In this document: one piece after another, positions 913-12,847 of the stretch
Layout of the letters: every line of letters begins with the position of its first letter
Position numbering within the stretch: the stretch's first letter is position 1
IMG/VR virus record: IMGVR_UViG_2609460346_000008
DNA: 35,868 bases
Direction: 5' to 3' (one strand)
Origin: a virus
Taxonomy: Duplodnaviria; Heunggongvirae; Uroviricota; Caudoviricetes
Position numbers and translations under genes: made by a program
The notes under the pieces: model-generated
Seen by the model: the letters and a program-made list of their open reading frames with translations, nothing else
Databases searched by the model: none
Told to the model about the DNA's origin: nothing

Positions 913-1311
913 TTATCTGGATTTGTTAACGTCTTTCGTCTCCTCTGGCAGATCTTCATCAAACAACCTGCCCTGCATCCGATCCAGTTCTTCTTTTCTG
1001 ACCCGCTTAACCACGCTGTAGACCCACTGAAGCGAAACACCAAACTTGCGGGCCAGTTCGTGGTGGTTGCGTCCGTTAAACTCCCTGAAGATTTCCCGGT
1101 CGCGCTGACTGACCTTCCATACCATGCCCATCGGGAAATAAACGTTTTGCCCGCCCCAGACCTGCATCATTCGGTTCGCGACGGCCTGACCAATCTGGTC
1201 GGCAATTGCGGGCTCAATATCAATAATCTCGCGAACGGTCTCAGAGGTATGCTGTGCCAGCTCCACCAGGAGTTCCGGCCCTTTACTTCGAAACTGATTC
1301 AGGTCGCTCAT
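913..1311 (-). CDS. mor: Mor/C-family transcriptional activator (middle/late gene activator)
   Basis: 132 aa, C-terminal HTH-like segment ELARKFGVSLQWVYSVVKRVRKEE; last gene of the early operon directly after a GemA-like gene, as in Mu (gemA-mor). RBS GGGAG 7 nt upstream of the ATG at 1311. Confidence 0.75.
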   Translation of the reverse strand: MSDLNQFRSKGPELLVELAQHTSETVREIIDIEPAIADQIGQAVANRMMQVWGGQNVYFPMGMVWKVSQRDREIFREFNGRNHHELARKFGVSLQWVYSVVKRVRKEELDRMQGRLFDEDLPEETKDVNKSR

Positions 1312-3932: not shown

Positions 3933-4463
3933 TTACTGCACATTCTGCTCAAAAGGAATTATTGAAAAATCCTCAATATCACTTTTTATGGTAATACCGG
4001 GAATATTTTTCACGGCGTCCTTTTCATTCAGGATGGCGTCTTTATTTATTTCCTCCTTTACACGGATAAAGCGCTCAAGCCCCAGACGTCTCAGTAATTC
4101 AATAACATTATCCGCCCCACGGATACTGACTGACGGCGGACGGTTTCGCCACTGCACCTCGCCGGTGGTGAGGTTAGCGAACTTCACCTTCCCGTTGCCG
4201 GTCAGTTCATCACGGTGTGCCTCACACCATGTCTGAATACCGGACTGCAGTTCGGCCATGCGTTTTTTCAGGCTCTCGGTGAGCGGGGCATAACGTGCGG
4301 TGATGTCGCCAATGGTGTCATTCATTTCTGTTTCAGCCCTGACCAGTTCACGTTGCGCGTCACCAAGCAGTCTGATTCCCTCAATGACCTCTTCGCGTGT
4401 CCCCGGCACCCAGAGTGCTGCTGCGGCTTTGATACGTTTTGCCCCTTTTGTACTTTTTGCCAT
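3933..4463 (-). CDS. gam: Gam-like host-nuclease inhibitor (Mu Gam / Ku-like DNA-end-binding protein)
   Basis: 176 aa (Mu Gam is about 174 aa); position downstream of the transposition genes as in Mu; strong AGGAGGAG RBS. Confidence 0.75.
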   Translation of the reverse strand: MAKSTKGAKRIKAAAALWVPGTREEVIEGIRLLGDAQRELVRAETEMNDTIGDITARYAPLTESLKKRMAELQSGIQTWCEAHRDELTGNGKVKFANLTTGEVQWRNRPPSVSIRGADNVIELLRRLGLERFIRVKEEINKDAILNEKDAVKNIPGITIKSDIEDFSIIPFEQNVQ

Positions 4464-9615: not shown

Positions 9616-9972
9616 ATGAGCAAAGATATAGGAGAGCGCGTTATTTCTGTGAGGAAGAAAGCAGGGTTGAACCAGAGAGAATTTGCAGCTCGTTTAGGTA
9701 TTTCTAATGGTGGTATCAGTCAGATTGAAAATGGAAAGGCGATGCCTGGAGGGGAGTTTCTGTTAAAGATGCATCAAGAGTTTAATGTTGATGTAAATTG
9801 GTTGCTCACTGGAATGAGCACAGATGGTATGACTAGAAACCAGAATCAAATTTCCCCAGAAAAACAAAAACTAATAGATACTTTTGACGACATGACACCA
9901 GACCAACAACGCTCATTTCTTGAGATTGGGCGATTCTATACTCAGCCAAAACCAGGAAAAATCGCAGGCTGA
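9616..9972 (+). CDS. Phage repressor, XRE-family HTH (c-like immunity repressor)
   Basis: 118 aa; HTH QREFAARLGISNGGISQIENGK near the N-terminus; no S24 peptidase domain; gene visibly A+T-rich relative to neighbours; weak RBS. Confidence 0.8.
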   Translation: MSKDIGERVISVRKKAGLNQREFAARLGISNGGISQIENGKAMPGGEFLLKMHQEFNVDVNWLLTGMSTDGMTRNQNQISPEKQKLIDTFDDMTPDQQRSFLEIGRFYTQPKPGKIAG

Positions 9973-10057: not shown

Positions 10058-10090
10058 ACCGGAAAGCATTGTGCTTTCCGGTTTTGTTTC
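10058..10090. terminator. Bidirectional rho-independent terminator between the repressor and methyltransferase genes
   Basis: 10-bp perfect stem ACCGGAAAGC/GCTTTCCGGT, 5-nt loop, T-rich tracts on both sides (ttggttt ... tttgtttc). Confidence 0.7.
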
Positions 10091-10853
10091 AGAAGTTGCA
10101 GATTAGCAGTTCACGGCGCGGCGTGGGTTTACCCGCCAGACTGTAGTTGATATTCACTGTCTGTATGTTCAGTCCAGTGAACACCTCGCGCATCTGCGGG
10201 ATGTCGTTCACCGAAATTATCATTTTTCCTCTGATGCACCGGGCCAGCTCTGCCAGCCGCGAGTAGTTCCCTTCAGGAAAATCCACACCATAGCCTTCCG
10301 TACCCAGGTACGGTGGGTCGCAGTAGAACAGCGTGTGCGGACGATCATAACGCTCAATGCACTGTTGCCAGTCCATGTGTTCTATGACTGTTCTGGAAAG
10401 CCGCAGGTGTGCCGCTGACAGTTCTTCTTCAATACGCAGCAGGTTGAAGCGTGGCGGGGATGTGGTGGAGGTACCGAAGCTGTGCTCTGCCACCTTGCCG
10501 CCAAACGCCTGCTTCTGAAGGTAGTAGAACCGTGCCGCACGCTGGATATCCGTCAGTGTTTCTTCCGGGGTGATCTGCAGCCATTTGTAGATCTGACGGC
10601 TGACCAGCGCCCATTTGAACTGGCGGACAAATTCTTCCAGGTGATGCTTTACCACCCGGTACAGATTCACCAGTTCACCGTTGATATCATTGATGACTTC
10701 GATCTTGCCGGGTGTCTTAAGAAAATAGAGCGCTGCTGCCCCACAAAACGGCTCCACATAACATTCATGCGCCGGAAACAGCGGCAGAATGTGTTTTGCA
10801 AGGCGGCGTTTGCCACCAATCCACGGCACGATGGGTAATGTCTGCATTTTCAT
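10089..10853 (-). CDS. dam: DNA N6-adenine methyltransferase, Dam (D12) class; orphan (no nuclease partner seen)
   Basis: Motif I FCGAAAL and motif IV DPPY (FYCDPPYLG); N-terminus PIVPWIGGKRRLA typical of the Dam family; start placed at the internal ATG at 10853 (MKMQTL...); the track ORF extends to 10943. Confidence 0.85.
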   Translation of the reverse strand: MKMQTLPIVPWIGGKRRLAKHILPLFPAHECYVEPFCGAAALYFLKTPGKIEVINDINGELVNLYRVVKHHLEEFVRQFKWALVSRQIYKWLQITPEETLTDIQRAARFYYLQKQAFGGKVAEHSFGTSTTSPPRFNLLRIEEELSAAHLRLSRTVIEHMDWQQCIERYDRPHTLFYCDPPYLGTEGYGVDFPEGNYSRLAELARCIRGKMIISVNDIPQMREVFTGLNIQTVNINYSLAGKPTPRRELLICNF

Positions 10854-10957
10854 AATCTGTAAGCCTTTTACAATTATTAAAAAATATGGCAGTCTGGTCA
10901 GGTCTCGCGAGACTGACTGAACCTTGGTCGGCTCACAGCGCATTCCTGTGGGGCGAT

Positions 10958-10989
10958 GACCAGCCCGGCTTTCGGGTGCCGGGCTGGTC
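10958..10989. terminator. Strong hairpin (12-bp perfect stem GACCAGCCCGGC/GCCGGGCTGGTC, 8-nt loop), plus-strand terminator-like
   Basis: Read from sequence; followed on the plus strand by gTTCTTTCat. Lies in the non-coding gap between dam and the 71-aa ORF. Confidence 0.45.
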
Positions 10990-11043
10990 GTTCTTTCATG
11001 ATGCGGCAGGGATGGCGGGATTTCTGTTAATGTGGTTTAGGGA

Positions 11044-11259
11044 TTATCCGGGGCGATTTTCTGACCTTATCCGGTCCAGGGCATAAGTAATACCTTCTGC
11101 AAAAACAGAAGTATCAAACTGCTTTTGTATTCCCTGAAAATGAAAAGCGGCACGACAGACACTCAGTTCTCCGCGATGTAACCGGATAATATCTTCCAGA
11201 ACATTGTTCACTGCTTCAGCACGGCGCTGATGTTCTGTTAACGTTAATCGGGGATTCAT
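11044..11259 (-). CDS. Hypothetical protein (71 aa)
   Basis: AAGGAG RBS 7 nt upstream of the ATG at 11259, but the start codon overlaps the start of the opposite-strand ORF; one of the two may be spurious. Confidence 0.35.
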   Translation of the reverse strand: MNPRLTLTEHQRRAEAVNNVLEDIIRLHRGELSVCRAAFHFQGIQKQFDTSVFAEGITYALDRIRSENRPG

Positions 11260-11260
11260 G

Positions 11261-11662
11261 ATGCACTCCTTAAATGATGATTTTTATGCACTCACCGGCA
11301 AAATATTCTGCCGATTACTGAACACGCATCCGGCACCTCAGGTTTTGATTTATTCTGGTTTTTTCGATATTCCGGACCAGGTTGATCACGACCAGAAAAA
11401 GTGCCGGTATTTTATTGATACGCTGATATGGCTTCGGGATAACAGCTATATTCGTTACTCTCAGTTGCTGGCTGTGGGAGCGGCTGATGTCGTCCTCACG
11501 GAAAAAACGCTCCGTCTGCTCAATGCCACGCCGACCCTTCTGCAGCCCCGGCCCGCACCATTTAAAGAGTCACTTCTGGATGCAGTAAAAACCGGTGAAA
11601 ATGCAGTCATCGCTGAACGCGTATCCCGGATTATGAGTTACGTGTTTAATGAACGTAAGTGA
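11261..11662 (+). CDS. Hypothetical protein (133 aa), convergent with the P-loop gene
   Basis: Open frame with coding-like codon usage; GGGGA 6 nt upstream of the ATG at 11261; 3' end overlaps the P-loop gene's 3' end by 25 bp. No family recognised. Confidence 0.4.
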   Translation: MHSLNDDFYALTGKIFCRLLNTHPAPQVLIYSGFFDIPDQVDHDQKKCRYFIDTLIWLRDNSYIRYSQLLAVGAADVVLTEKTLRLLNATPTLLQPRPAPFKESLLDAVKTGENAVIAERVSRIMSYVFNERK

Positions 11663-12366
11663 GGTTTATCCGCTGTCTGCATAATCCCGATAGCCAGTGC
11701 GAGGGGAAGTAATTCCGGGGAAGTTCTTTCAAACAGCGATTCCCATTCTCCTCTCGCCATCACTCTGTCCAGCCCGCCCTCCAGTTGCATTTCAGCAATC
11801 TTCCTGATTTCCCGGAACAACGCCGCTTTGATCTCTTCATGCTCAGCTTTATTTTCCGGTGTCAGAAGGTATTCGTCGAAGAACCGGGGAGGCTGGTTAA
11901 TCGGGATGTGTTCCTGTTTGCCGTACTTCGGAGACGAACAACATTCTGTTGGCTGACCGGTGAGTTTACGTAACTCCTTCATGAGCAGCTCCTGATCGTA
12001 AACTGTCATCAGTGCCGCAATGGTGGCATGCAGTGCATCGGGCAGTATCCAGGGTTGCCGGCCCGTGGGGCATATAACATCCAGCAGCTCATTCCTCCGA
12101 CAGATACGCTCCTCGCCGTATGACAACAGGCCCTGTCCCGTGTATTCCTCCAGCCTGATCACTGTGCCAGCCCGTGGTTTCTGCCATGTGCTCAGATCAT
12201 CCCCACTCATACGGCGCTCACCGTCCACGTCTGCGGCGTCGACAATGACGCTGTTTCCGAATTCCTGTTTCACCACTTCCTCTATCCGCGCCAATATGTA
12301 ACTTTTACCGCTGCCCACAGGACCGGACACGGTGACAGTGATGACCGGATTCAGTGTCTGCGTCAT
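11638..12366 (-). CDS. P-loop NTPase-like protein (242 aa) with uncharacterised C-terminal domain
   Basis: Walker A GPVGSGKS near the N-terminus (residues about 15-22); strong RBS GAGGAGA 7-8 nt upstream of the ATG at 12366; divergent from the lysis cassette; C-terminal about 160 aa unrecognised. Confidence 0.65.
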   Translation of the reverse strand: MTQTLNPVITVTVSGPVGSGKSYILARIEEVVKQEFGNSVIVDAADVDGERRMSGDDLSTWQKPRAGTVIRLEEYTGQGLLSYGEERICRRNELLDVICPTGRQPWILPDALHATIAALMTVYDQELLMKELRKLTGQPTECCSSPKYGKQEHIPINQPPRFFDEYLLTPENKAEHEEIKAALFREIRKIAEMQLEGGLDRVMARGEWESLFERTSPELLPLALAIGIMQTADKPHLRSLNT

Positions 12367-12428
12367 ATCGTATTCTCCTCTGTGAATAATTCATCGTTTA
12401 TCCTGCACATCCCGTATCCCCGGCTCTC

Positions 12429-12447
12429 TTAACGCGCTTTAAAATCC
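12429..12447 (+). promoter_or_regulatory. Putative late promoter element P1 (ttaacgcgcTTTAAAATCc) upstream of the lysis/head operon
   Basis: One of four copies of TTAA-N5-TTTAAWATC; its 3' end lies 49 nt upstream of the ATG at 12497. Confidence 0.4.
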
Positions 12448-12496
12448 TTCGCGCCCTGTATTTGTGATGCTGTCTCCACCAGACAAGGAGACACAC

Positions 12497-12847
12497 ATGA
12501 AAAACCTGAAAAAATTCATTCCCCCTGTTAAAAAACCTCGCCTCAGCGGCTGGCTGCTGACCTCAGTGCTGTTGCTGGGCACCATCGCTCTGGTCTCGCC
12601 ACAGCAGTTGCCTGTTGTGATCTACAAGCTGGCACTCATCACGCTGGCAGCAGTGCTGGGTTACTGGCTTGACCGTTCGCTCTTCCCCAAAGCCCGTCCC
12701 GGTCAGTACCTGAAACATGACGACAGGCTGATGGCTGATGGGCGTTTCCCGGTACAGACCGGCCTTCACCTGGTGTTTTCTGCTGCGTTAATCCGCCGTG
12801 CACTGATTGTTGCAGCGGTCTGTCTGGCTGTTGCGATGGGGCTTTAA
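12497..12847 (+). CDS. Membrane protein at the head of the lysis cassette (holin/antiholin candidate)
   Basis: Start ATG at 12497 with AAGGAG 6 nt upstream (track ORF starts at 12464); three predicted hydrophobic helices; immediately precedes the lytic transglycosylase. C-terminus is hydrophobic, which is atypical for a classical holin. Confidence 0.5.
   Translation: MKNLKKFIPPVKKPRLSGWLLTSVLLLGTIALVSPQQLPVVIYKLALITLAAVLGYWLDRSLFPKARPGQYLKHDDRLMADGRFPVQTGLHLVFSAALIRRALIVAAVCLAVAMGL

Follow-up and report, generated by a model that had tools for sequence, protein, structure and literature searches.

The 35,868-nucleotide window analysed here (IMG/VR record IMGVR_UViG_2609460346_000008; Caudoviricetes) is a BcepMu-like (Mu-type) transposable E. 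coli prophage, and between its immunity repressor and Dam methylase genes on one side and its holin gene on the other lie three genes, encoding proteins of 242, 134 and 71 amino acids (aa). Together these most likely form a dispensable accessory cassette. The part of the 242-aa protein that travels with the 134-aa gene is a C-terminal helical domain of ~60 residues, not the N-terminal P-loop, and sequence comparisons indicate that this domain is paralogous to the 71-aa protein encoded on the opposite flank of the 134-aa gene. The interpretation offered, which is tentative, is that the cassette combines a winged-helix-like protein of 134 aa with an antisense-coupled helical partner domain, and that it is not a toxin–antitoxin (TA) pair. 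The original prediction for this region, which had likened the convergent 242- and 134-aa genes to TA or abortive-infection modules, overlooked the 71-aa gene, which stands head-to-head with the 134-aa gene and is part of the same unit. The genes and their domains are located as follows:
11638–12366, minus strand: gene for the 242-aa modular protein (phrog_3787); an open reading frame (ORF) with a full-length PHROG match (E 6e-168)
11258–11662, plus strand: gene for the 134-aa, probably winged-helix-like protein (phrog_2266); an ORF with a full-length PHROG match (E 4e-43)
11044–11259, minus strand: gene for the 71-aa small helical protein (phrog_4490)
12139–12366, minus strand: mini P-loop domain, residues 1–76 of the 242-aa protein
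12301–12324, minus strand: Walker A sequence GPVGSGKS, residues 15–22
12145–12162, minus strand: putative Walker-B-like sequence VIRLEE, residues 69–74
11959–12114, minus strand: middle helical module, residues ~85–136; low-confidence helices in the AlphaFold2 model
11671–11856, minus strand: C-terminal small helical partner domain, residues ~171–232
11638–11662: 25-bp convergent 3' overlap of the 242- and 134-aa genes, in the poorly conserved tails of both proteins
11405–11527, plus strand: residues ~50–90 of the 134-aa protein, with the motif 'F..T..WL...GYI ... V.LT.K.L..LN', which resembles a winged-helix recognition helix and wing

Evidence for the C-terminal domain as the partner of the 134-aa gene comes from other prophages with the same slot. 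In Serratia BcepMu-like prophages the slot lacks a P-loop and holds instead an 89-aa protein that is 48% identical to residues 177–228 of the 242-aa protein; its gene is followed by a convergent gene for a 139-aa homologue of the 134-aa protein (52% identity, 37-bp overlap) and next by one whose 73-aa product is homologous to the 71-aa protein. In three Salmonella lineages (P0042, P0048 and P0051) this C-terminal domain closes a mosaic protein, whose gene is followed in each case by a convergent 134-family gene (overlaps of 54, 4 and 25 bp) with a product 31–34% identical to the window protein. C-domain and 134-family genes are therefore convergent and 3'-overlapping in five lineages (25, 37, 54, 4 and 25 bp), although the 134-family proteins of these lineages are only 24–52% identical. 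By contrast, P-loop-headed proteins without the C-domain occupy the same slot in seven lineages, none of which has a 134-family neighbour (0/7). This 5-versus-7 split has no exceptions (Fisher P ~0.001 by our own arithmetic, for lineages that are not independent and genes that are physically linked). As the Serratia C-domain stands alone, and P-loop proteins lacking the domain never neighbour a 134-family gene, the helical domain and not the P-loop is the element that travels with the 134-aa gene. These data support the view that the convergent, 3'-overlapping pairing is conserved rather than accidental. The original prediction had located the 25-bp overlap and both ORFs correctly and its pairing recurs across lineages, as the co-occurrence of the genes shows, but it had assigned the partnership to the P-loop protein as such.

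The paralogy of the C-domain (residues ~171–232) and the 71-aa protein is supported by an intermediate. Direct comparison of the two gives a weak match (hhalign P=2.7e-4). An 83-aa protein encoded head-to-head with 134-family genes in lambda-like loci, however, matches two profiles, that of the C-domain (E 1e-9 to 1e-10) and that of the 71-aa family (E 1e-10 to 1e-11), and a joint alignment of the C-domain, the 71-aa family and the 83-aa protein displays the common pattern 'QL.G..DWV..R..WE......L..AL'. The partner domain is thus encoded twice, on both flanks of the 134-aa gene: once as the free 71-aa protein, in head-to-head orientation, and once as the C-terminal domain of the 242-aa protein, in tail-to-tail orientation.

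The alternative that survives best, itself unlikely, is that the genes are unrelated neighbours: the slot would collect independent cargo, the overlaps would reflect compaction, and the 242-aa protein would act alone, for instance as a polymorphic factor in defence or counter-defence, in which variable C-terminal modules choose the targets and the mini P-loop is the constant working part. Consistent with this, the content of the slot is highly variable among related prophages, the mosaic proteins carry C-terminal modules with matches in separate PHROG families, and the overlap lies on non-conserved tails and varies in length from 4 to 54 bp; adjacent overlapping genes are, moreover, co-inherited whatever their function. 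Against it, the pairing of C-domain and 134-family gene persists at ~30% identity in five lineages and is split within the slot only by recent deletions. The paralogy of the C-domain with the other neighbour of the 134-aa gene is also hard to explain without a functional link, and the start-codon junction between the 134-family gene and its head-to-head partner, described below, is retained in 39 of 42 loci.

Both the 242- and the 134-aa ORF are real genes, as judged by full-length PHROG matches, RefSeq annotation, diverged homologues and the ratio of non-synonymous to synonymous substitution rates (dN/dS). RefSeq annotates all three genes in E. coli, the 242- and 134-aa genes in hundreds of genomes, and homologues at 30–52% identity occur in Serratia, Salmonella and P2-like phages. 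For the cassette genes dN/dS is ~0.1–0.4 in the more diverged comparisons, versus 0.04–0.1 for the Dam gene; values are 0.1–0.5 in each of the three modules of the 242-aa gene and 0.06–0.7 for the 71-aa gene. The 134-aa ORF is counted from 11258, while a second ATG at 11261 gives a protein of 133 aa. When the 134-aa gene of the window is compared with near-identical E. coli copies (loci L001, L006 and L019), there is an excess of non-synonymous changes (dN/dS 2.4 and 1.06, from very few changes), which could reflect relaxed or positive selection, or noise.

A scan of IMG/VR identified 60 loci of the 134 family, which reduce to 42 distinct ones and come from BcepMu-like, P2-like and lambda-like phages. 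All but three of the distinct loci (39 of 42) have the start codon of the 134-family gene overlapping, within the tetranucleotide CATG, that of an opposite-strand ORF of 46–83 aa. In P2-like phages the pair sits in the diversity hotspot between gpA and gpQ; the carriers, each with a head-to-head small ORF, are phages Midge and FSL SP-004, a Klebsiella phage and E. coli prophages. The 63-aa partner in P2-like phages (phrog_2454) has no detected homology to the 71-aa/C-domain family and is a positional analogue only. The similarity to T7 gp5.5/5.7 given in the annotation of Midge was not reproduced (hhalign P 0.42 and 0.23). The gpA–gpQ hotspot of P2-like phages holds defence systems, and also carries non-defence genes (Rousset et al. 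2022, PMC9122126); the 134-family homologues share this site, whereas the window copy occupies a different slot in a different type of phage and has no PADLOC match. Conservation of the CATG pairing over three types of temperate phage, including the P2 defence hotspot, indicates an uncharacterised two-gene module that has so far lain outside defence and counter-defence screens.

Several of these loci merit individual mention. In the P2-like Klebsiella phage ST147-VIM1phi7.1 (L009, 4056–5292) the 134-family pair adjoins genes for a reverse transcriptase and an XRE regulator, which are candidates for a retron-like defence system. In four lambda-like loci of IMG/VR (L073, L088, L105 and L106) the 134-family gene and its 83-aa partner adjoin the gene for the large terminase subunit, in convergent orientation with abutting ends; this is a third genomic position of the module. 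In the E. coli BcepMu-like prophages L006/L007 (6393–6773) and L022, a diverged paralogue of the 134 family, with 126 aa and 28% identity, is encoded just upstream of Dam, and these phages therefore carry two 134-family copies.

The 134-aa protein is probably winged-helix-like, a view that derives from its sequence motif. The family alignment displays the pattern 'WL...GYI ... V.LT.K.L..LN', which aligns, below threshold, with the winged-helix proteins YjcQ (2hgc), AspA and eS10 (PDB E 0.3–0.8). Among 14 family members searched against Pfam, one matched DUF2513 (E 0.042) and one YjcQ (E 0.083), both under the gathering threshold, and the window protein matched neither; the UniRef label of the Serratia homologue is DUF2513. 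Proteins of the DUF2513/YjcQ type resemble the 134 family in size (~100–145 aa), in prophage context and in a '...WL...GYI...(wing)...LT.KG.' motif. In contrast to these proteins, the 134 family carries an additional helix, with an 'FP.P' motif, at the N terminus and a helical extension at the C terminus, and its scores remain sub-threshold. Structure prediction divided the two proteins: the AlphaFold2 model of the 134-aa protein, built from a shallow alignment, was unusable (predicted local distance difference test (pLDDT) score of 45), while residues 11–70 of the 242-aa protein were modelled with confidence (pLDDT ~95–98).

The 242-aa protein is built of fused modules, as its sequence relationships show. 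When 1.84 billion representative proteins were searched exhaustively with HMMER, 58 relatives were returned and, close E. coli copies apart, these align to residues 1–76 only, in agreement with the earlier estimate of an NTPase core of about 70 residues. Residues 1–76 head mosaic proteins of 113–364 aa in BcepMu-like prophages of Salmonella, Citrobacter and E. coli, where, in all loci examined, no other gene lies between the P-loop-headed gene and the divergent holin gene, and the mini domain also occurs in distant phages as stand-alone proteins of 78–92 aa. In the Salmonella mosaic proteins (P0037–P0064) the variable C-terminal parts are built of shuffled modules behind one constant P-loop head. 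These modules match separate PHROG families of undescribed role (phrog_21394, 35734, 18255, 17476 and 25421), so that modules known elsewhere as stand-alone phage proteins are here fused behind the P-loop head. The middle module (residues ~85–136) is common to some Salmonella mosaic proteins and is kept in truncated E. coli variants of 141/158 aa; other E. coli size variants of the 242-aa protein have 247 and 182 aa. The mini P-loop domain is a separate, swappable head, probably fused on in the E. coli and Salmonella lineages.

Residues 1–76 are best described, from the sequence, as a Walker-A-containing mini domain of unproven fold. The predicted Walker A was found where expected, after a β-strand and before a helix, as the GxxxxGK[ST] motif of P-loop NTPases; the three-layer α/β/α core with a parallel sheet of at least five strands that characterizes these enzymes is not present in the 242-aa protein. 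In an alignment of 44 sequences G20 and K21 are invariant, and V13, G15, G18, S22, I28, P64 and E74 are at least 90% conserved. The xxxxxGK[ST] signature is kept in 33 of 36 relatives, the other three having a degenerate GAExxGKN loop. The statement that no canonical Walker B is present needs qualifying, as E74 closes the hydrophobic stretch VIRLEE, an hhhhEE motif that may serve as a Walker B equivalent. When the mini-domain profile was compared with the PDB, only the strand-GxxGxGKS-helix element was matched (ABC transporters, kinases, EF-Tu and designed P-loop proteins; E 2.6e-5 to 6e-4), and the domain as a whole had no structural or family match. Pfam scores for KAP_NTPase (13.8 bits, cutoff 20) and AAA_30 (16.5 bits, cutoff 27), and for ABC_tran on relatives of the 242-aa protein (17–18 bits, cutoff 25), all fall under gathering thresholds, and the matches are confined to the first 40–50 residues. 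Membership of the KAP or ABC families, implied by some RefSeq names, was rejected on these scores, and the names 'ABC transporter ATPase' and 'KAP family NTPase' on truncated copies are unjustified. The mini domain shares its N-terminal strand-GxxGxGKS-helix with P-loop NTPases, including designed minimal 'phosphate-loop' prototypes (PDB 6c2u) and a de novo P-loop ATPase (9jix), and likewise has a conserved acidic residue after a hydrophobic strand, as in Walker B. Should nucleotide binding be borne out, no natural P-loop module would be smaller, and the mini domain would parallel, in nature, the minimal prototypes constructed for work on how the fold arose.

Of 5426 complete E. coli genomes, 584 (~11%) carry the cassette, always on the chromosome; the ST131 reference strain EC958 is among them. 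All three genes are nevertheless annotated as hypothetical. Components of the cassette are lost independently. In about 100 E. coli genomes the P-loop gene is reduced to its front part, for instance to the 141/158-aa forms, and those of the loci that were examined lack the 134-aa gene. Beside an intact 242-aa gene, the 134-aa gene has shrunk to 18 codons in prophages L021 and L024 and in strain SCU-105, and is broken by a stop codon in L018/L061. Conversely, the 134-aa gene is intact beside the 182-aa variant, in which the 242-aa gene has a 60-residue internal deletion.

The cassette genes are opposed at both junctions, and the following elements bear on their expression:
11257–11260: CATG junction, in which the start codons of the 71-aa (minus) and 134-aa (plus) genes overlap by 2 nt
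11266–11271, minus strand: AAGGAG ribosome-binding site of the 71-aa gene, within codons 3–5 of the 134-aa gene
11250–11254, plus strand: GGGGA ribosome-binding site of the 134-aa gene, within codons 2–4 of the 71-aa gene
12375–12380, read as the reverse complement: GAGGAG ribosome-binding site of the 242-aa gene, 8 nt 5' of the ATG, bearing out the strong site predicted earlier
12367–12463: divergent intergenic region of 97 bp that separates the 242-aa gene from the holin gene, with the same layout in all BcepMu-like loci examined
10958–10989: perfect 12-bp inverted repeat between the 71-aa and Dam genes

As the start codons overlap and each ribosome-binding site lies inside the first codons of the other gene, the 5' ends of the 71- and 134-aa mRNAs must be complementary. 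No terminator-like site was found between the convergent 242- and 134-aa genes, which makes antisense coupling of the two plausible on sequence grounds. The 97-bp region must, from the arrangement of the genes, hold the promoters of both the 242-aa gene and the holin gene; no sigma-70 consensus promoter scored above background in the window for the three genes, this region included, no promoter was conserved upstream of 134-family genes in nine lineages, and no LexA box indicative of SOS control lies in 10900–12500. The inverted repeat at 10958–10989 is GC-rich, with perfect 12-bp arms (GACCAGCCCGGC/GCCGGGCTGGTC) and an 8-nt loop, and the plus strand continues past it with GTTCTTTC. It was not called as a terminator by the tool used; hairpins at the same position were called as terminators in Serratia (L002, 5737–5770) and Salmonella (L048, 4202–4235).

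In the interpretation favoured here, the 134-aa winged-helix-like protein would bind nucleic acid or act as a regulator, and the small helical domain would bind and modulate it. Tethering the partner domain to the mini P-loop may make this interaction dependent on a nucleotide or phosphate ligand. Transcripts of the minus strand that start in the 242-aa/holin intergenic region would pass through the 242-aa gene, run antisense over the 134-aa gene and enter the 71-aa gene, the order on this strand being 242, 71 and then Dam. Given such antisense transcription and the complementary 5' mRNA ends, the 134-aa protein and its partners are probably in mutually antagonistic, switch-like expression. 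A function expressed by the lysogen in phage–phage or phage–host conflict is favoured, in view of the variable or hotspot location, the mosaicism, the patchy distribution and the relaxed constraint, none of which is proof. A more ambitious proposal, which we advance with low confidence, is that a natural Walker A/Walker-B-like domain of ~75 residues, far smaller than any characterised P-loop NTPase, serves phages as a swappable ligand-sensing head on polymorphic accessory proteins, and that the winged-helix-like gene, overlapped antisense at its 5' (CATG) and 3' ends by genes for paralogous partners, forms with them a bistable switch controlling a prophage conflict function.

Antisense-coupled pairs include P22 sar/ant, lambda oop/cII, 'excludon' loci and the convergent pR/pL promoters of coliphage 186. 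In these, opposed genes that no terminator separates have transcripts that must overlap and interfere with each other, as is predicted for the cassette. The cassette differs in that both overlapping transcripts would be protein-coding, the overlaps affect the 5' and 3' ends of one gene, and the flanking genes encode paralogous domains. The literature searched contained no description of a gene overlapped antisense at both ends by genes for paralogous partners, and nothing on these gene families.

That the three genes instead control the prophage's own late, lysis or Dam expression, an idea that stems from their position next to the lysis promoter and upstream of Dam, is decidedly improbable. 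It accords with the invariable position of the 242-aa gene as first gene divergent from the holin, the location of the 71-aa gene upstream of Dam on the same strand, and the winged-helix-like appearance of the 134-aa protein. However, many prophages that are otherwise alike lack the cassette or have it truncated or replaced, and the 134-family pair is also found in P2-like and lambda-like phages with other neighbours. A role as late activator was rejected because a Mor-family late activator (E 1e-43) is encoded elsewhere in the window (913–1311).

The likeness to TA or abortive-infection modules, in which one protein would be toxic, the other would neutralize it and the 3' overlap would provide antisense control, is highly improbable: the cassette does contain two small adjacent genes in a prophage accessory region, as do type II TA systems, one of them possibly DNA-binding, with a conserved gene overlap and with 134-aa homologues in a P2 hotspot that is home to defence systems (PMC9122126), but its genes are convergent (242/134) or divergent (71/134) rather than co-directional in one operon, and each stays intact where the other is deleted, stopped or internally deleted, instead of co-occurring obligately. 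The P-loop head is also widespread without a 134-family gene, and the 134 family without a P-loop. Searches of Pfam, NCBIfam and PADLOC gave no toxin, antitoxin or defence family match beyond generic P-loop noise; in PADLOC-DB v2 the 134- and 71-aa proteins had no match, and the 242-aa protein only weak ones over its P-loop segment (Csx3, E 0.002, 15.8 bits).

The surroundings of the cassette are those of a Mu-type phage, the window region being 98.6% identical to Escherichia phage PhiKM (Bcepmuvirus). A minus-strand early operon encodes Mor, GemA, Gam, an AAA protein, the transposase and a Ner-like protein, and is followed by the repressor gene (9616–9972), Dam, the three cassette genes and then, on the plus strand, the holin, an SLT endolysin and the late genes. 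The distal early-operon homologues (Mor 913–1311, GemA 1283–1732, DUF2786/DUF7168 2157–2876 and Gam 3933–4463) confirm the Mu-type organization, in which the early operon here runs in the opposite direction to the late genes. The GC content of the cassette (0.45–0.51) is slightly lower than that of the late genes (0.55–0.64), which fits acquired cargo. The longest ORF for Dam (10089–10943) encodes 284 aa, whereas RefSeq and other gene callers give 254–256 aa with a start near 10853; a promoter-like minus-strand site (10901–10873) lies just upstream of this shorter start. Between the convergent repressor (plus) and Dam (minus) genes, a strong 11-bp stem-loop with a T-run (10058–10082) is likely a shared or bidirectional terminator.

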